From the NCBI GenBank assembly GCA_903832005.1, contig CAIKZO010000132.1, forward strand, positions 26,035 through 90,034: a DNA stretch of 64,000 bases, read 5' to 3'. Every line of letters starts with the position of its first letter. The stretch's first letter is position 1. This stretch comes from Enhydrobacter aerosaccus (GTDB lineage Bacteria > Pseudomonadota > Alphaproteobacteria > Reyranellales > Reyranellaceae). The notes under the pieces are model-generated. The model was given only the letters and a program-made list of their open reading frames with translations, searched no databases and was not told where the DNA came from. Positions 54,373 to 63,760 of the stretch are shown one piece after another. The translations under genes were made by a program, and so were the position numbers.

Positions 54373-54849
54373 GTGACGCGCATGGAAAGCGAGACCGGGA
54401 GCAGCAGCGACAACACCGAAAGCGAAAGCAGAGGTGGATATCGCCGCCGGCGCAGGCGGAGAAGCAAGAGAAAGGGCGAGGACGGACTGAGCGCGGAAAC
54501 GCGCCACCTGCTCAAGCTGGCACGCTGGACCGTCGGCGGTATCGTCATGCTCGCGACCTGGGCTTACGGCGTCTACGTCATCCCGAAGCTGGGCTGGGGT
54601 GCCGCCATGTTCTTCCCGGCAGGCGCGGTCGCGATGGTGTGCATTGCCAGTGCACTGTCCATTCCCTTCGTCTCTATCCTGCTGATGATCGTGGGCTTTC
54701 TCTTGGCGATCGACGGCGGCCCCCTCGCCGGCTTGCGCCGGGCCGGCATGGCGTTCGTCGCCGTCGGCGGGCTGAATGCGGTCTGGCAGACGATGATGTT
54801 CTTTCTCAGCAAGCGCGAAGTGACCCGCAACGAGGCCGGCTACAAGTAG
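54373..54849 (+). CDS. Hypothetical membrane protein with Arg-rich N-terminus (RRRRRRRSKRK) and 3-4 TM helices
   Basis: 158-aa ORF. No family recognised. Confidence 0.45.
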   Translation: MTRMESETGSSSDNTESESRGGYRRRRRRRSKRKGEDGLSAETRHLLKLARWTVGGIVMLATWAYGVYVIPKLGWGAAMFFPAGAVAMVCIASALSIPFVSILLMIVGFLLAIDGGPLAGLRRAGMAFVAVGGLNAVWQTMMFFLSKREVTRNEAGYK

Positions 54850-54852
54850 CCT

Positions 54853-55314
54853 CTACTGGCCGCGTGAATTGACCCGCCGGCTGCCACGCACCGCCGCCTG
54901 TCCTTGGTCGGGTGACACTTCCCTGATCTCGCAGCCCGGCATCAGCATGCCGACCTTCATCGAGACTTCGACGTAGCGGGTGCGGCCGGCATCTATGGTG
55001 ACCTGCTGCCCACCCTGCTGGTCGCCGATCCGGCACGAGAGATCGACCGGTCCCGGCGGCCCTTCCAGGCGCAGGTAAGTATTGGACGCCAACTCGGCAT
55101 TGACGCCGCCGGCGATGCTGACGTCGATCGGGCGGGCAACGCCCATCAGGCCCGAGCGATAGACATAGAGCGCACCGCTGTCCTGTCCCGGCTGCACGAA
55201 GCGCTTGGCCTCGGCATCCTGCTGCGAATCGGCCAAGGGCACATTGGCACACGCGGCTGCCAACATAAGCAATGGCAACGTCCGGCCGATACGCAAGATC
55301 TGATTATGGTTCAT
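54853..55314 (-). CDS. Lipoprotein (DUF2846-like)
   Basis: Start MNHNQILRIGRTLPLLMLAAACAN with lipobox. Strong SD GGAGGA. The track ORF extends to 55518. Confidence 0.55.
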   Translation of the reverse strand: MNHNQILRIGRTLPLLMLAAACANVPLADSQQDAEAKRFVQPGQDSGALYVYRSGLMGVARPIDVSIAGGVNAELASNTYLRLEGPPGPVDLSCRIGDQQGGQQVTIDAGRTRYVEVSMKVGMLMPGCEIREVSPDQGQAAVRGSRRVNSRGQ

Positions 55315-55397
55315 GGCATCCTCCGGGACTTCAACGCCTTCACCGGAACATAGCTGCATGTCGTCTTGCCGGCGGATTGGCGGCGATTTGGTGGTGG

Positions 55398-56324
55398 TCA
55401 GACCAGCATCGTGCGGATCGACACGGCGAGTTCGACCCCCGGCAAGGCCGCCGCCAGATCGACCGTCAGTTGTCGCTCGACCTCCTCGACCGCGCGCACG
55501 GCCGTGTCCTCCGGGCACGTCAGGGCTACCTCGAGCGCAACGGCGCGCGAGGTGCCGTGCGAGCGAAAGCCCGCAAGGCCGAAGCCCGAAGGAAGCGACG
55601 CTGCCGCGTGCTCCAGCGCCGGACCCGCGATAGTGGCGACCGATTTATCGAGCAGATCCGGCACGGACTCGGCCATCAGATCGAGGCCGGCCTTCATCAT
55701 GATCGCACTGACGATTACGGCGCCCAGCCCGTCGGCCAGCGCTACCACCACCGGATCCTTGGCCAGCGCCGCAATCGTCATGGTGGCCTGGATCAGCACC
55801 GACGCCATGAGCTTGGTGACGCGCGCCTGGAGCAGCGCGCGCATGATGGCCGACGGCGTCCCGAGTGTCGCCCGGCGCACGCCGTCCCAGGCCACGAAGT
55901 TCAGGAGGAGATTGAACGCCGACACCACCGCCGCGGCGGTGAGGCCGAAGGGCGAGGCATCGCTGCCTTCCTCCAGCGCCATTGCAACGGCACTGTAGGC
56001 CACCCAGGCCGCGCCGATGAAGAGCCCGCACGCCACGCCGACACTGCAGAGTTGCTCGATCTTGCCGGTGCCGTAGTCGAAGCCGCGCAACGCACCGCGA
56101 TGGATGCGCCGCATCACCAGCAGGGTGAGGAGGTCGATCAGAGTCATCAGGGCGCCACGGATCGCTTCCGCGAGGCAGGTGAGCGATTGGCCGACGATGC
56201 CGCCGACGATCAGCAGCAGCAGGAGCATCGCGAAGTCGAGTGTCCAGGCCAGCAGCAATGCGCTTTCGCGGCCACGCTGCTCCAGTTTCCGGCCGTCACT
56301 GCCCGGGATGGCGGCGTCGGCCAT
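55398..56324 (-). CDS. Cation-diffusion-facilitator-fold membrane protein with non-canonical (apparently degenerate) metal-site residues
   Basis: 308 aa, 6 TM plus CDF-like cytoplasmic C-terminal domain. Conserved FxYGxGKxE loop is present. In a by-eye alignment to YiiP, the TM2 DxxxD and TM5 HxxxD positions read E/R...G/M and Q...T. Confidence 0.6.
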   Translation of the reverse strand: MADAAIPGSDGRKLEQRGRESALLLAWTLDFAMLLLLLIVGGIVGQSLTCLAEAIRGALMTLIDLLTLLVMRRIHRGALRGFDYGTGKIEQLCSVGVACGLFIGAAWVAYSAVAMALEEGSDASPFGLTAAAVVSAFNLLLNFVAWDGVRRATLGTPSAIMRALLQARVTKLMASVLIQATMTIAALAKDPVVVALADGLGAVIVSAIMMKAGLDLMAESVPDLLDKSVATIAGPALEHAAASLPSGFGLAGFRSHGTSRAVALEVALTCPEDTAVRAVEEVERQLTVDLAAALPGVELAVSIRTMLV

Positions 56325-56327
56325 GGG

Positions 56328-57653
56328 CTAGTGCAGGCCGAGCCGCGCCATCAGCACGGCCAGCACACCCGCATTCGGGAAATGGACGTAAGCCGCCTGA
56401 CCGACCGGACAGGCATGGAACTCGCCCGATTCGGCTTCCAGGCGCAGCAACACCTGGCCGTCGCCGCGCCCCCGTCCCTTGGCGACCGCCGCGATATCGG
56501 TCACGCCGATCGTCTCGGCCGCGCCACGCAAGGCAACGACACGCGCCGGCAACCAGTGGTTTTCTCCTTCGATGATCGCCTCGGCCTCGCTGCCGAGAGG
56601 GATCAGCGGCAGCGCCGCGTCCGCGACCGGGGCGTCGATAAAAAGCTCGCGGCAGTCGATCCAAGTCGCCACGGGATTGCCCGGTTCGACCGCGGCGCCG
56701 GCGCCGATGATGGAGCTGCGGATGGTGGCGCCGGGAGGCGCCAGGACCGGCGCCTTGCTCTGCAGCCTGAAAGCCTGCCGCGCCGCCTCCAGCGCATGGC
56801 TGGATTTGCCCAAGGCCGCTTGCGCCTGATCGACGGCCAACTGCGCGCGCTTGATCTCGGTCTTGGCCTGCTGCTGGTCGTCATAGGCCCAGTTCACGCT
56901 CGAACCGTCGGATGCCAGGAAGATGCCCTGGTCGGCCGCGGCGCGTCGGCGCTGGGCCCGCTCGAGTTCCATGCGCCCGGCGGCGAGGTCGACCTGGGCC
57001 TCGGACAGGCGGATCACCGCCTCGTCGCGATAATCCCTCGAGCGATAGCCGCTATCGCTTACCGACTTGGTCCGGTCGGCTACCTGTGTCGCCGCGGCCA
57101 CCTTGGCGTTGAGAAGCGCCATCTTGGCCTGCATGACGCCGATCTCGGCATCGAGATCGGCGCGATAATTGGCGGCATGCAGTCGCCGCCGGGTACGACG
57201 GTCGTTGTCGAGGTCCTGCACGCCCTGCAGATAGTTCTTGGCCGCCGCGAGCCGCGCCGTCGCACCGTCGAGATCGGCCTCGGCGATCTTGATGCCGCCG
57301 GGATCGAGCAGATCGTTGGTGATTTCCACGATGATGCCGTCGGCTCCCACCTCGGCCCCCGGCAGCGGCGTGCTGGCAGGCATGCGTCCGCGGATCGGTG
57401 CGGTGGCGACGTTGTTCCAGGCAGTGACGGCCGAGCCGCGCACCAGCGAGGCCACGAGATAGGGCCACAACATGATGACGGAATAGCCCACGACCAACGC
57501 CATCACCGCCAACCGGACCATCGTGCGATGTGCGTCGTTGAGGCGTCGTGCCGACCGCAAGGCACTTCCGATGCGGCCGTTCACGGTATCTAGCCGCCGA
57601 TCTTCTGCCACCACGACTTCTGCGCCTGCGGCCAACCGCGCGCTTCCATGCAA
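56328..57653 (-). CDS. HlyD-family membrane fusion (periplasmic adaptor) protein
   Basis: N-terminal TM, coiled-coil (LAAAKNYLQGVQDL...), beta-barrel/lipoyl-like C-terminal region. Start uncertain: an alternative Met at 57521 avoids overlap with the upstream lipoprotein gene. Confidence 0.75.
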   Translation of the reverse strand: MHGSARLAAGAEVVVAEDRRLDTVNGRIGSALRSARRLNDAHRTMVRLAVMALVVGYSVIMLWPYLVASLVRGSAVTAWNNVATAPIRGRMPASTPLPGAEVGADGIIVEITNDLLDPGGIKIAEADLDGATARLAAAKNYLQGVQDLDNDRRTRRRLHAANYRADLDAEIGVMQAKMALLNAKVAAATQVADRTKSVSDSGYRSRDYRDEAVIRLSEAQVDLAAGRMELERAQRRRAAADQGIFLASDGSSVNWAYDDQQQAKTEIKRAQLAVDQAQAALGKSSHALEAARQAFRLQSKAPVLAPPGATIRSSIIGAGAAVEPGNPVATWIDCRELFIDAPVADAALPLIPLGSEAEAIIEGENHWLPARVVALRGAAETIGVTDIAAVAKGRGRGDGQVLLRLEAESGEFHACPVGQAAYVHFPNAGVLAVLMARLGLH

Positions 57654-57939
57654 CTGGCCATGAACTTGTCGGCGTTGCGGCTGTCGCTGTAGTTGGCCAT
57701 CTGGTTGGACAGGCCGTCCCGGCCGGACCGGTCGGTGTCGTTGGCGAACGTGCCCGCGCTGGCGTCATCGATCCGCCGGCGCGAGTGCATGTACTCGTCG
57801 ACCTGGCCTTGGCACAGGCTGCGGTCACGCGTGTACTTCTCCGGATTCGCCGCAGCCCGGCCATTGGGATCCGCCGGCTGCTGGCAACCCGCCACCAGGA
57901 TGCCAATACCGAGTGCCATCACGGCGAGGCTACGGTGAC

Positions 57940-57943
<4 letters not shown>
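57590..57943 (-). CDS. Hypothetical lipoprotein
   Basis: [22 protein letters not shown] lipobox. SD GGAGGAG. ATG overlaps the alaS stop. Hidden inside a longer track ORF (57590..58594). Confidence 0.55.
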
Positions 57944-61543: not shown

Positions 61544-62620
<1,077 letters not shown>

Positions 62621-62674
62621 TGGGTGCCTCCCTTGATAATCCACGCCCCTGTCAGGAGCGGCAATACGATAACT

Positions 62675-62700: not shown

Positions 62701-63760
62701 AGGGGAATTAACCTGCTGATAGGATTAAACTTATTGACACTAGTTCTAGGTCTGTTCCCTGTCTTCCACAACCCAGTTATCCCCTTGACGCATGTAGGCA
62801 CAAAGCCTAGATTCTGGACATGGCCAAGACCAAACCAATGACCGTCCGTCAGTTCTTCCAGATGTTCCCGACGGACGACGATTGCCTCGACCACCTGATG
62901 CGAACCCGCTTCGGGGATCGGCACGTCTGCGAGAAGTGCGGGAAGTCGGCCCACTACTACCGGATCAAGGCGCGCAAGGCTTACCAGTGTGAATACTGCG
63001 CCAATCACCTGTACCCCTGTGTCGGGACGCCCTTCGAGAAGTCGCGCACGCCTCTTCAATACTGGTACTTCGCCATGTATCTGTTCTGCGCCTCGCGTAA
63101 CGGCGTAGCGGCCAAGGAACTCCAGAGGCAGCTAGGCGTGACCTACAAGTGCGCATGGCGCATGGGCCACGAAATCCGCAAGTACATGGGCAAGGTTGAC
63201 GGTGATGCCCCGCTGGGTGGTTTCGGCATTGTGGAAGCCGACGAGACGTTTATCGGCGGCTACGACGAGCGCGGACACGATGACAAGGTGATCGTGCTGG
63301 GCGCGATCGAGCGCGGCGGCGAAGTGCAAACCGAAGTGGTCAAAAACCGCCGCGCGGGAACTCTTATTCCCGAGTTGAAGCAAATGCTGGTTCCGGGCGC
63401 TCGCGTTGTGACCGACGATTTCGTCAGCTATCACGATCTGCCGGGAGAGGGCTTCCCGCACGCCACCGTCAATCATTCGGCCGGTGAGTACGTCCGTGGC
63501 CCAGTCCACACGAACAACATTGAGGCGTTCTGGTCGGTGCTAAAGCGCGGCATTAACGGCACCTACATCCACGTCTCGGAAAAGCATCTACCGAAGTACC
63601 TGAGCGAGTTTGAGTTTCGCTTTAATCTTCGGAAGAGCCCGCACGCTTTGTTCGATGCTTTGATTTTGGCTTTTCCACGGGGCCACCAAGCGCCATAGCT
63701 TCGGTTAGTTTCTGGAAGCGCTCGCTCGCATCGTCGCGAGTTTGATCCTCTTCGCGCTCG
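62700..63760 (+). mobile_element. IS1595-family insertion sequence (boundaries approximate)
   Basis: ~45-50% GC DNA surrounding the transposase gene. Clean terminal IRs could not be defined by eye: only weak CTTCCA(C/G)AA similarity between ~62745 and ~63705. Confidence 0.45.
62820..63698 (+). CDS. IS1595-family transposase (N-terminal zinc-ribbon plus DDE domain)
   Basis: CEKCGKS...CEYCANH zinc ribbon, followed by an ISXO2-like DDE domain. 292 aa. Confidence 0.85.
   Translation: MAKTKPMTVRQFFQMFPTDDDCLDHLMRTRFGDRHVCEKCGKSAHYYRIKARKAYQCEYCANHLYPCVGTPFEKSRTPLQYWYFAMYLFCASRNGVAAKELQRQLGVTYKCAWRMGHEIRKYMGKVDGDAPLGGFGIVEADETFIGGYDERGHDDKVIVLGAIERGGEVQTEVVKNRRAGTLIPELKQMLVPGARVVTDDFVSYHDLPGEGFPHATVNHSAGEYVRGPVHTNNIEAFWSVLKRGINGTYIHVSEKHLPKYLSEFEFRFNLRKSPHALFDALILAFPRGHQAP

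Follow-up and report, generated by a model that had tools for sequence, protein, structure and literature searches.

A conserved two-gene cassette pairs an EmrA-like periplasmic adaptor with a CDF-fold protein whose canonical metal sites are replaced: a possible tripartite exporter

Results and discussion

The window (i.e. the whole 64,000-nucleotide stretch of DNA analysed here) contains an autonomous, translationally coupled two-gene cassette at 55398-57584 on the minus strand, encoding a periplasmic adaptor protein (PAP) of the EmrA/HlyD type and a CDF-fold inner-membrane protein that, by alignment, has lost the metal ligands of its family. The same pairing recurs in genomes and metagenomes from many unrelated contexts. 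We hold with about as much belief as doubt that the cassette would be a tripartite exporter of a new kind, built on a CDF protein and serving a non-metal, possibly anionic, substrate; if so, it would represent an envelope-spanning export pump of a previously undescribed type.

Layout of the locus

An ORF check on the window recovered, at the same positions, all five open reading frames that a first-pass annotation of this DNA had listed.

57590..57943, minus strand: lipoprotein, 117 aa, lipobox LVAGC; in the sequence its start codon and the alaS stop overlap (ATGA)
56328..57584, minus strand: PAP gene, EmrA/HlyD-type periplasmic adaptor, 418 aa from GTG 57584
55398..56324, minus strand: inner-membrane protein of CDF fold, 308 aa, made up of six TM helices followed by a C-terminal alpha/beta domain
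54853..55314, minus strand: DUF2846-like lipoprotein, 153 aa, lipobox LAAAC; sub-cut-off Pfam match
54373..54849, plus strand: Arg-rich membrane protein, 158 aa, convergent to the cassette

The PAP stop codon lies 3 nt upstream of the CDF-like gene. The adaptor had been placed at 56328..57653 and the gene is indeed there, but GTG 57584 is a likelier start than TTG 57653 (441 aa): it lies 5 nt past the lipoprotein stop, and the N-terminal peptide that it adds is conserved in the sequence P0046. A third start, ATG 57521 (397 aa), is the one picked by gene callers on identical contigs, and PAP residue numbers are counted from it throughout.

The three flanking genes, which the first-pass annotation had grouped with the pair, fall outside the conserved unit. 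Both lipoproteins are lineage-specific neighbours whose recurrence is limited to the Reyranella-like clade. The 117-aa protein matches no Pfam or NCBIfam family, and among the loci compared its homologs occur only in Reyranella-like ones. Its 153-aa counterpart does match Pfam DUF2846, as had been suggested, but at 29.7 bits against a cut-off of 34.3; it is confined to the clade with at least 52% CDF identity and stands at a variable distance from the cassette, in relatives sometimes ~2 kb away. The Arg-rich protein matches no Pfam or NCBIfam family, has no tblastn match across about 110 related loci and is present only on identical contigs.

The adaptor and CDF-like genes are obligately linked

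The CDF-like gene has the PAP gene immediately before it, on the same strand, at 22/22 genome loci and at 68/68 metagenome loci with enough upstream DNA, so that the pairing seen in the window is a conserved one. Where loci were read in detail, the intergenic gap is no longer than about 15 nt, or the genes share a 4-nt overlap. The cassettes are embedded in many unrelated genomic contexts, one locus (L091) carries the cassette duplicated in tandem, and the assignable hosts are nearly all diderms (Alphaproteobacteria and Verrucomicrobiota); Pelagibius marinus NBU2595 is a carrier in culture. Divergence in one protein also tracks divergence in the other (r = 0.945, Mantel 0/999), a correlation expected of any gene pair inherited together.

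The surroundings of the cassette are otherwise variable. A set of 119 proteins encoded next to about 40 loci has no Pfam family with more than four members, and OEP, ABC, RND and MFS families are all missing from the 25 most frequent; no biosynthetic, regulatory or metal-related gene was found consistently linked to the cassette, and 10 of the window's large ORFs include no outer-membrane factor. Since no other transporter or OEP recurs as a neighbour, the CDF-like protein is the sole conserved candidate partner of the PAP. The first-pass annotation had remarked that a CDF partner is not a described combination; two reviews of tripartite pumps and PAPs are likewise silent on CDF proteins, and literature searches returned no report of a CDF-PAP pairing in open-access full text.

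A CDF scaffold with replaced metal sites

The CDF-like protein matches Pfam Cation_efflux (E 4.6e-20) and aligns with EcFieF, SoYiiP and ZitB at an hhalign probability of 98.8%, while its AF2 model (pLDDT 80) matches YiiP and ZnT structures in Foldseek (E 2e-10, TM-score up to 0.68). Of the curated models, CDF, MamB, MamM and FieF come closest, and the protein scores below the cut-off of every one (TIGR01297, 59.4 vs 82.35). The charge interlock of the dimer is kept (K88/D226, equivalent to YiiP K77/D207), as is the TM6 aspartate (D198, YiiP D179). The CDF scaffold and cytoplasmic domain are thus retained, as first proposed, and the protein would be a dimer in the inner membrane, presumably a homodimer here given the single CDF-like gene of the window.

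56145..56186, minus strand: TM2 signature SLTCLAEAIRGALM, containing E53 and R56
55800..55823, minus strand: TM5 signature RVTKLMAS (R168, K171, S175)

The DxxxD and HxxxD pairs that form site A in YiiP are absent by profile alignment. In TM2, phmmer, hmmsearch and hhalign agree in placing R56 at YiiP D45 and M60 at D49. In TM5, hhalign and phmmer place K171 at H153 and S175 at D157, whereas the hmmsearch register is off by one helical turn (4 residues), giving A167 and K171. The loss of both pairs had been noticed by eye at the outset; the TM2 replacement stands, but the TM5 residues then put forward ('Q...T', i.e. Q179/T183) are not the aligned pair. The conclusion that the site is lost holds despite this, because D, H, E, N and C are all absent from TM5 of the CDF-like protein. 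R56 and K171 occupy the positions at which Asp45 and His153 of YiiP bind zinc, flanked by the conserved acid E53. In the hhalign alignment zinc site B is gone as well (YiiP D68/H71/H75 to L79/F82/T86) and the histidines of site C are replaced by A251, A267, E280 and S302, so that, as judged by alignment, all three canonical metal sites are replaced.

The clade is small: a set of 1.84 billion proteins contains about 480 clusters of it. In an alignment of the cassette-linked sequences (A2), E53 and R56 never vary. Across the wider clade, counted over 104 representatives of 50%-identity clusters, the acid E/D53 is found in 100, R56 in 102, D198 in 100, R168 in 90, S175 in 84 and K/R171 in 66; position 171 is Met in a further 26, and K171 is therefore not essential everywhere. 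The charged and polar residues aligned to the YiiP transport site (E53, R56, R168, K171, N138, N142 and D198) are the most conserved of all at divergence down to about 25% identity, and this pattern of conservation indicates that the signature is under selection.

Some cassettes carry a second, degenerate CDF paralog (CDF2) and some fuse the two; P0165, directly downstream of a PAP homolog, is a natural CDF1-CDF2 fusion. CDF2 keeps the scaffold and loses E53, R56 and K171, the pattern expected if these residues form the working site of the active protomer. D190, on the periplasmic face, is invariant across the PAP-linked set and absent from all four PAP-less relatives checked (P0175, P0221, P0240 and L030, the last read by eye without alignment), three of which also lack T183. 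This distribution is consistent with D190 being a PAP contact.

The adaptor resembles EmrA and carries an RLS-type motif

The PAP scores 28.5 bits against Pfam HlyD_3, where the gathering score is 22.2, and 26/26 family members scanned hit the same model. Its AF2 model (pLDDT 85) comprises an N-terminal TM helix, lipoyl and beta-barrel domains, a C-terminal helix and a ~120 Å hairpin with an 82-residue hairpin helix, and has no membrane-proximal (MP) domain. The top Foldseek matches are EmrA in EmrAB-TolC (8zal/8zar, E 1.5e-15) and 4tko, with the metal-pump adaptor ZneB at rank 10.

57453..57518, minus strand: N-terminal TM anchor, residues 2-23, a helix in the AF2 model, preceded by the basic cytoplasmic tail RSARRLNDAHRT
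57039..57074, minus strand: RLS-type TolC-docking motif R150-x3-V154-x3-G158-x2-S161 (RTKSVSDSGYRS) at the predicted hairpin tip
56454..56528, minus strand: beta-barrel segment RGAAETIGVTDIAAVAKGRGRGDGQ, residues 332-356, the most conserved segment of the PAP
56409..56654, minus strand: span between the two invariant cysteines, C290 (WIDC, 56652-56654) and C371 (CPVG, 56409-56411)

Within the anchor, Y13 and P20 never vary, and conservation of Y21 is at least 90%. The RLS motif has been defined as RxxxLxxxxxxS (PMC3391258); its counterpart in the PAP is highly conserved (R150 30/30, V/L154 27/30, G158 30/30, S161 28/30) and falls in the model at the tip loop 157-161, between helices 75-156 and 162-197. 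The 332-356 segment contains nine invariant positions (R332, G333, A335, A345, A347, K348, G349, G353 and Q356), and residues 336-347 have pLDDT below 50 and are predicted to be flexible. EmrA uses beta-barrel loops to touch EmrB and the inner membrane (PMC13139468) and, by analogy with its beta-CL loop, the segment is a candidate membrane- or partner-facing loop. C290 and C371 are invariant in alignments of 30 and 26 sequences, with the codons verified, and may form a periplasmic disulfide. A few PAP homologs have fused cytoplasmic domains, sensory or enzymatic in nature: P0122 carries a cNMP-binding domain and P0139 an alpha/beta hydrolase.

A possible CDF-based tripartite exporter and the alternatives

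The loss of the metal sites and the conserved pairing support the early suggestion of a repurposed CDF-like module working with a periplasmic adaptor. In the exporter that we envisage, the CDF-like dimer would be the inner-membrane engine, in some relatives a heterodimer or covalent fusion with the degenerate second paralog. A PAP hexamer would be anchored around it through its TM helices and the conserved beta-barrel loop, and would dock tip-to-tip on a TolC-family outer-membrane factor encoded elsewhere. The exported substrate would not be a transition-metal cation; a small molecule, anionic or zwitterionic and held by R56/K171, is the most plausible candidate, with E53 as protonatable coupling residue and alternating access powered by the proton-motive force. 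Against a tripartite arrangement, CDF proteins protrude so little into the periplasm that a PAP would have hardly anything to grip, and a gene for an outer-membrane factor was not found in the ORFs and neighbours examined; against a non-metal substrate, a hard cation could still find ligands in the conserved acids D30, E53 and D198.

A simple accident of position, with an ordinary CDF standing beside an unrelated HlyD gene through synteny downstream of recA-alaS, is very improbable. The block recA-alaS-lipoprotein-PAP-CDF-DUF2846 is indeed syntenic in the closest relatives (Reyranella-like, 52-77% identity), and, taken by itself, that clade might need nothing beyond inheritance to explain the conservation; but the pair is found in 90/90 loci, in many unrelated contexts and two phyla, with genes a few nt apart or overlapping and a tandem cassette copy in one case, and the CDF-like protein is no ordinary CDF. 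The co-occurrence analysis therefore effectively refutes this explanation. It is unlikely, though far less so, that the CDF-like protein is a pseudo-transporter, i.e. a non-transporting scaffold, assembly factor or regulatory subunit of the PAP, which would then serve an unlinked ABC, MFS or RND pump or have a non-efflux role in the envelope. ZnT6 is the non-transporting subunit of the ZnT5-ZnT6 heterodimer, and the more degenerate second paralog, sometimes fused, recalls it; the loss of every metal site, the lack of a linked outer-membrane factor in the ORFs and neighbours examined and the PAP fusions to cNMP-binding and hydrolase domains point the same way. The strong conservation of the residues aligned to the transport site fits a working site and not a passive scaffold, however, it is specifically the degenerate CDF2 that has lost the signature residues, and no other transporter is linked in about 40 diverse contexts.

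Somewhat more doubtful still is continued export of a metal or other cation (for example a hard cation or metal complex) via alternative ligands (D30, E53, N138, N142, S175, T183 and D198), where R56/K171 would gate or compensate charge and the PAP, like CusB or ZneB, would pass the cation on to a channel in the outer membrane. In favour of this, the protein has the fold and dimer interlock of a CDF exporter, E/D53, D198 and N138/N142 are strongly conserved, the PAP has ZneB among its structural matches, and family members are auto-annotated 'divalent metal cation transporter'. Yet the four site-A positions contain no His, Cys or Asp and two are positively charged, which should repel cations; the zinc-sensing/holding sites B and C have also gone, and the score falls short of the curated CDF-superfamily cut-off. 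Moreover, the PAP is far closer to EmrA, a drug-pump adaptor without an MP domain, than to metal-pump adaptors, and the neighbouring genes include no recurrent metal-responsive regulator or other metal gene.

Comparison with known systems

The PAP has the domain set and order described for EmrA (PMC13139468), its best structural match, including the missing MP domain, a very long alpha-hairpin and an RLS-type motif at the tip. As in EmrAB-TolC, the PAP gene immediately precedes a gene for an inner-membrane protein of secondary-transporter size, and the outer-membrane factor is unlinked, as is tolC in E. coli. The partner differs, being of CDF fold (2 x 6 TM plus cytoplasmic domain) instead of a 14-TM MFS monomer, and the PAP itself is only about 15% identical to EmrA (NCBIfam EmrA/EmrK, 29.8 vs a cut-off of 390.8), has a hairpin return helix broken by a conserved loop (FLxxDGxxxxWA), and has two invariant cysteines.

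With YiiP/FieF and the Fe/Zn-CDF group (including MamB/MamM) the CDF-like protein shares the six-TM plus CTD fold, the K88/D226 interlock and D198. It departs from them in site A, where DD-HD has become R56, M60, K171 and S175, and in its obligate linkage to a PAP gene, which the two reviews of PAPs and tripartite pumps do not report for CDFs. ZnT5-ZnT6 and MamB-MamM are heterodimeric CDFs, and cassettes with a signature-less paralog resemble them in pairing an active with a degenerate or modulatory subunit, although here the 'active' subunit is itself without metal ligands. AaeAB is a PET/FUSC-family system for p-hydroxybenzoate efflux with an EmrA-like adaptor, AaeA (listed in PMC8277102). 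Its transporter fold is unrelated (FUSC vs CDF) and only generic PAP domains are in common, but there too an EmrA-like adaptor has been recruited by a transporter that is not ABC, RND or MFS, in a two-gene PAP-transporter arrangement, and the exported substrate is an organic anion.

Organisation of the locus

Downstream of recA and alaS, the window carries a two-gene cassette in which a gene for an EmrA/HlyD-type periplasmic adaptor protein (PAP) is followed by one for a 308-residue CDF-like protein. All five of the ORFs that the first-pass annotation had placed here are present.

Genes of the locus, by position in the window
61544-62644: recA; the cassette lies downstream of recA and alaS
57940 to about 60600: alaS, between recA and the cassette
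57590-57943, minus strand: lipoprotein, 117 aa; ATG overlapping the stop of alaS (ATGA, 57940-57943)
56328-57653, minus strand: HlyD-family (PAP) gene, as maximal ORF
55398-56324, minus strand: CDF-like gene, 308 aa; starts 3 nt past the stop of the HlyD-family gene
54853-55314, minus strand: DUF2846-like lipoprotein, 153 aa
54373-54849: Arg-rich membrane protein, 158 aa; convergent to the other four ORFs

The PAP most likely starts at GTG 57584 (418 aa), since this codon lies 5 nt past the lipoprotein stop and the N-terminal peptide that it adds is kept in a homologous protein, P0046. Another candidate, ATG 57521, is the choice of gene callers on identical metagenomic contigs and gives the 397-aa form in which residues are numbered here. 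Given the ATGA stop/start overlap, alaS may in this organism be co-transcribed with, or translationally coupled to, the lipoprotein gene and possibly the cassette as a whole. In the Reyranella MAG L001 the alaS and lipoprotein genes are 15 nt apart. Synteny, together with 57% identity to a protein of a Reyranella MAG, assigns the window to a Reyranella-like alphaproteobacterium. Beyond recA lies an IS1595-family transposase ORF (about 62820-63698, plus strand; Zn_ribbon_IS1595 and DDE_Tnp_IS1595 on the identical ENA contig), at which GC content falls from about 0.65 to about 0.56-0.60.

Although present at its flanks and described together with the pair, the lipoproteins and the Arg-rich protein do not belong to the core of the conserved unit. 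Both the lipoprotein and the DUF2846-like protein are confined to a Reyranella-like clade, within which the distance of the DUF2846-like gene from the cassette varies, and the Arg-rich protein recurs at no related locus. The assignment of the downstream lipoprotein to DUF2846 (PF11008) falls below the gathering threshold (29.7 against 34.3 bits), and precomputed matches are likewise flagged as 'weak'. We also considered the alaS-coupled lipoprotein as the true partner of the PAP, by analogy with YbjP-TolC structures; we found no evidence for this, and most cassettes lack this lipoprotein.

A CDF fold without the canonical metal sites

The CDF-like protein is unambiguously of the CDF fold. It matches PF01545 (Cation_efflux) with an E-value of 4.6e-20 (72.7 bits; cut-off 26.6), and its AF2 model (pLDDT 80) has six TM helices and an alpha/beta C-terminal domain. 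The top 46 Foldseek matches to this model are all CDF transporters, led by YiiP (E 2e-10, TM-score up to 0.68) and followed by ZnT1/3/4/7/8 and SLC30A10. Against TIGR01297, the curated CDF superfamily model of NCBI, the protein scores 59.4 bits, under the cut-off of 82.35, and it lies far under every cut-off of the equivalog models FieF, MamB, MamM, ZitB and MntE.

Residues at the YiiP zinc sites were compared in three independent alignments: by phmmer and by hmmsearch with a family profile, both against PDB, and by hhalign, in which the family was set against E. coli FieF, S. oneidensis YiiP and ZitB (probability 98.8%; E. coli sequences from MG1655).

Residues of the CDF-like protein at YiiP functional positions
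D45, site A (TM2): R56; all three methods
D49, site A (TM2): M60; all three methods
H153, site A (TM5): K171 by hhalign and phmmer, A167 by hmmsearch
D157, site A (TM5): S175 by hhalign and phmmer, K171 by hmmsearch
D68, H71, H75, site B (TM2-3 loop): L79, F82, T86; hhalign
H232, H248, H261, H283, site C (binuclear, C-terminal domain): A251, A267, E280, S302; hhalign
K77, D207, dimer charge interlock: K88, D226; retained
D179, TM6: D198; retained

The canonical CDF site A, formed of D/H/N ligands in a TM2 xDxxxD and a TM5 HxxxD motif, is missing, as are sites B and C. The ambiguity of one helical turn in the TM5 register is immaterial, because D, H, E, N and C are all missing from this helix. 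The alignments thus bear out the core of the first-pass annotation, namely a preserved scaffold that has lost its metal sites; the TM5 pair that it read as Q...T is not the one aligned to YiiP H153 and D157. CDF proteins have been described as stand-alone metal exporters and are defined by their D/H site. The protein studied here is a structural member of the family that lacks this defining functional feature and falls short of the curated sequence threshold. Annotating it as a metal exporter is unwarranted: with the metal ligands absent, the name 'divalent metal cation transporter' is unlikely to be right, and its routine use for this family is due for correction.

A conserved Arg/Lys/Glu signature in a small clade

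A phmmer search of 1.84 billion cluster representatives returned 481 clusters with E <= 1e-3, 185 with E <= 1e-10 and 41 with E <= 1e-30; with so few matches, the CDF-like proteins form a small and divergent clade, not the CDF family at large. The family is common among Alphaproteobacteria and Verrucomicrobiota of soil (Reyranella, Stellaceae, Ca. Udaeobacter), abundant organisms that have been little studied. Conservation was counted over 103 full-length representatives and the window protein.

Conservation of selected residues of the CDF-like protein (n = 104)
E/D53: 100/104
R56: 102/104
R168: 90/104
K/R171: 66/104 (Met in 26)
S175: 84/104
N138: 76/104
N142: 89/104
D198: 100/104
D226: 102/104
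K88: 97/104

The count for R56 means that a positive charge is near-universal at the position of a zinc-binding Asp of canonical CDFs, one helical turn from a conserved acid. The clade has a conserved Arg/Lys/Glu signature and has lost the metal sites.

The adaptor is a divergent EmrA-like protein

The PAP matches HlyD_3 (28.5 bits, cut-off 22.2), as do all 26 of the family members scanned (best E 1.8e-11). In its AF2 model (pLDDT 85) a TM helix (residues 2-23), preceded by a basic tail that implies an N-in, C-out topology, leads into lipoyl half-domains (30-68 and 256-300) separated by a long hairpin, which runs out along an 82-residue helix (75-156, about 120 Å) and back through helices 162-197 and 211-255, which a conserved loop separates. 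The chain ends in a beta-barrel (301-380) and a C-terminal helix, and has no membrane-proximal domain. The domain list published for EmrA (PMC13139468) is the same, and the best structural matches are the EmrA chains of EmrAB-TolC cryoEM structures (8zal/8zar, E 1.5e-15) and A. aeolicus EmrA (4tko). The score against the NCBI EmrA/EmrK subfamily is 29.8 for a cut-off of 390.8, which marks the PAP as a divergent member of the EmrA/HlyD type.

At the modelled hairpin tip the PAP family carries R150-x3-[V/L]154-x3-G158-x2-S161, conserved in 30/30, 27/30, 30/30 and 28/30 members, respectively. Its spacing is exactly that of the RLS motif, RxxxLxxxxxxS, through which MacA, AcrA and HlyD touch the TolC tip (PMC3391258). 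Two cysteines, C290 (WIDC, 56652-56654) and C371 (CPVG, 56409-56411), are invariant across the family and could be joined by a periplasmic disulfide that staples the beta-barrel domain. Conservation along the protein is highest in residues 332-356, a low-confidence beta-barrel loop in the model; by analogy with EmrA, whose beta-CL loops seal onto EmrB and the inner membrane (PMC13139468), it is a candidate partner-facing element. In the features compared, the PAP is of the EmrA/HlyD type except that it is paired with no recognised transporter family.

The two genes are linked across unrelated genomic contexts

When one genome of each GTDB species was scanned, 28 loci were recovered. Of these, 22 have a CDF-like match of E <= 1e-30, and each of the 22 has the PAP gene immediately upstream of it, in the same orientation. 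Host taxa comprise Reyranella, Dongiaceae, Stellaceae, Rhodospirillales, Pelagibius marinus NBU2595 (an isolate), Verrucomicrobiia and Ca. Udaeobacter. A metagenome scan gave 80 loci, 68 of them with at least 300 nt upstream, and the PAP gene is directly upstream in 67 of these; the exception, L066, has a PAP gene and two tandem CDF-like genes. Viewed from the PAP, the adjoining gene is CDF-like at 90/90 genome and metagenome loci, so the co-occurrence on which the proposed pairing was to be judged is conserved. Where loci were read closely, the gap between the genes is a few to about 15 nt, or they share 4 nt; the linkage is obligate and operonic. One metagenomic contig holds two complete cassettes in tandem (L091 3381-7992).

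That the two genes adjoin by chance is exceedingly improbable: the flanks vary between loci (aconitase/transposase, cyclase/TPR genes, hslU/hisB, cox genes and others), and the 22/22 genome loci together with the 68 metagenome loci in such unrelated surroundings exclude it. Across 55 distinct cassettes, pairwise identities of the PAP and the CDF-like protein correlate with r = 0.945 (Mantel 0/999), showing that the cassette has been inherited and has moved as a unit, a co-divergence that is no proof of contact. A third conserved partner (OMF, ABC/MFS/RND pump or regulator) was sought among 119 neighbouring proteins from about 40 loci outside the Reyranella clade, with genes picked by GC3 before a Pfam scan because plain ORF clustering in GC-rich DNA yields mostly antisense shadow ORFs. 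No Pfam family occurred in more than four of the 119, and OEP, ABC, RND, MFS and FUSC were all absent from the 25 most frequent families. No OMF was found among 10 large ORFs scanned in the window; genes for such outer-membrane factors are often unlinked to the rest of the pump. The PAP has a single conserved candidate partner, the CDF-like protein, and the two probably form a functional complex.

Paralogues, fusions and relatives without an adaptor

In one clade (L004-L006, Pelagibius L026, L077 and L102) a second CDF paralogue lies downstream, with the scaffold kept and E53, R56 and K171 lost. The 605-aa protein P0165 (L118 2467-4284) is a natural fusion of two CDF-like halves, one bearing the signature and one degenerate, and directly upstream of it is a PAP homologue (L118 1234-2457, 33% identity, E 4e-74). 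This fusion provides Rosetta-stone evidence that the two paralogues may form one dimer, and it suggests that E53, R56 and K171 mark the active protomer.

Four more distant relatives that we checked (L030, P0175, P0221 and P0240), occurring as tandem pairs or singly, have no PAP. D190 is missing in all four and T183 also in three (L030 by eye, unaligned); both residues are invariant in the alignment of PAP-linked proteins. D190, in the loop between TM5 and TM6, is on the periplasmic face and hence a candidate site of PAP contact. The E-x-x-R signature is therefore older than the recruitment of the PAP.

A possible CDF-based exporter

In tripartite pumps the PAP gene normally sits beside that of an ABC, RND, MFS or PET/FUSC transporter, whereas here it sits beside a CDF-like gene. 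A recent review (Front Microbiol 2026, PMC13328181) gives ABC, RND and MFS partners, the last with AaeAB, which review lists of pump classes often put under MFS, and leaves CDF proteins unmentioned; the same holds for the accessible portion of an earlier one (Chem Rev 2021, PMC8277102). Targeted searching of open-access full texts turned up no account of an HlyD/PAP-CDF pair, only unrelated metal-resistance genome papers, in keeping with the earlier view that the combination is undescribed. The adaptor-transporter cassette belongs to a known type; the proposed switch of substrate class within the CDF fold is the more novel element.

The proposal of a repurposed CDF-like module working with a periplasmic adaptor is supported, with function and substrate inferred. 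A PAP hexamer would surround a CDF-like dimer, whose 12 TM helices would approximate the footprint of the 14-TM EmrB, and would dock onto an unlinked TolC-family duct. The dimer would run the alternating-access cycle of CDF proteins on a substrate other than a transition-metal cation, with E53 as a protonatable coupling residue. For this CDF-based tripartite exporter as a whole we judge the chances to be about even. Because cationic side chains stand in place of cation ligands, the most economical guess for the substrate is a small molecule, anionic or zwitterionic; that it is an anion specifically is doubtful. Only tentatively do we propose a further class of trans-envelope pump, in which a CDF-fold dimer with its zinc site rebuilt as Arg/Lys/Glu would be the engine for a non-metal, probably anionic substrate, joined by an adaptor like EmrA and a duct like TolC that it would have recruited.

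Two other readings keep the adjacency and change the role of the CDF-like protein. Like ZnT6, it could transport nothing and act as a scaffold or regulatory subunit; loss of the metal sites would suit such a role, conservation of the charged signature would suit it less well, and we consider it unlikely. Alternatively, it could export cations in an atypical way through D30, E53, D198, N138 and N142, most of which are widely conserved; set against the near-invariant Arg at a former ligand position and a TM5 devoid of ligands, this appears quite improbable. Were the CDF-based exporter correct, it would add a new inner-membrane engine to the envelope-spanning pumps, and the CDF scaffold would have been re-tooled for a non-metal substrate, a switch of substrate class in a textbook family. 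The cultured carrier P. marinus NBU2595 opens the hypothesis to direct test.

Domain fusions and neighbouring systems

Some PAP homologues are extended at the N-terminus by cytoplasmic fusions: P0122 (635 aa) by a membrane region and a cNMP-binding domain, and P0139 (669 aa) by an alpha/beta hydrolase. A stand-alone cNMP-binding gene lies directly upstream of the cassette at L005 (6114-6614), and several guanylate-cyclase/TPR genes flank that of L006. From the P0122 fusion and these neighbours, the cassette may be under cyclic-nucleotide control in one clade.

Beside the cassette at L017 (839-4661) are three ORFs: one for a Gly-rich peptide of 68 aa whose leader is of the double-glycine type (…LVAGG), one of 481 aa, and one of 725 aa that at its N-terminus (…EPSECGLACLAMV…) resembles, by eye, the C39-peptidase domain of bacteriocin ABC exporters. 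We rejected this exporter as a part of the cassette, as it looks like a separate bacteriocin system and occurs at that locus only. At L120 (1-1483), an AaeA-like adaptor and FUSC/AaeB-like transporter pair lies about 2.5 kb upstream of the PAP-less P0221, with MgtC and a dCache-GGDEF gene following; the proximity of P0221 to this anion-efflux module is probably a coincidence.
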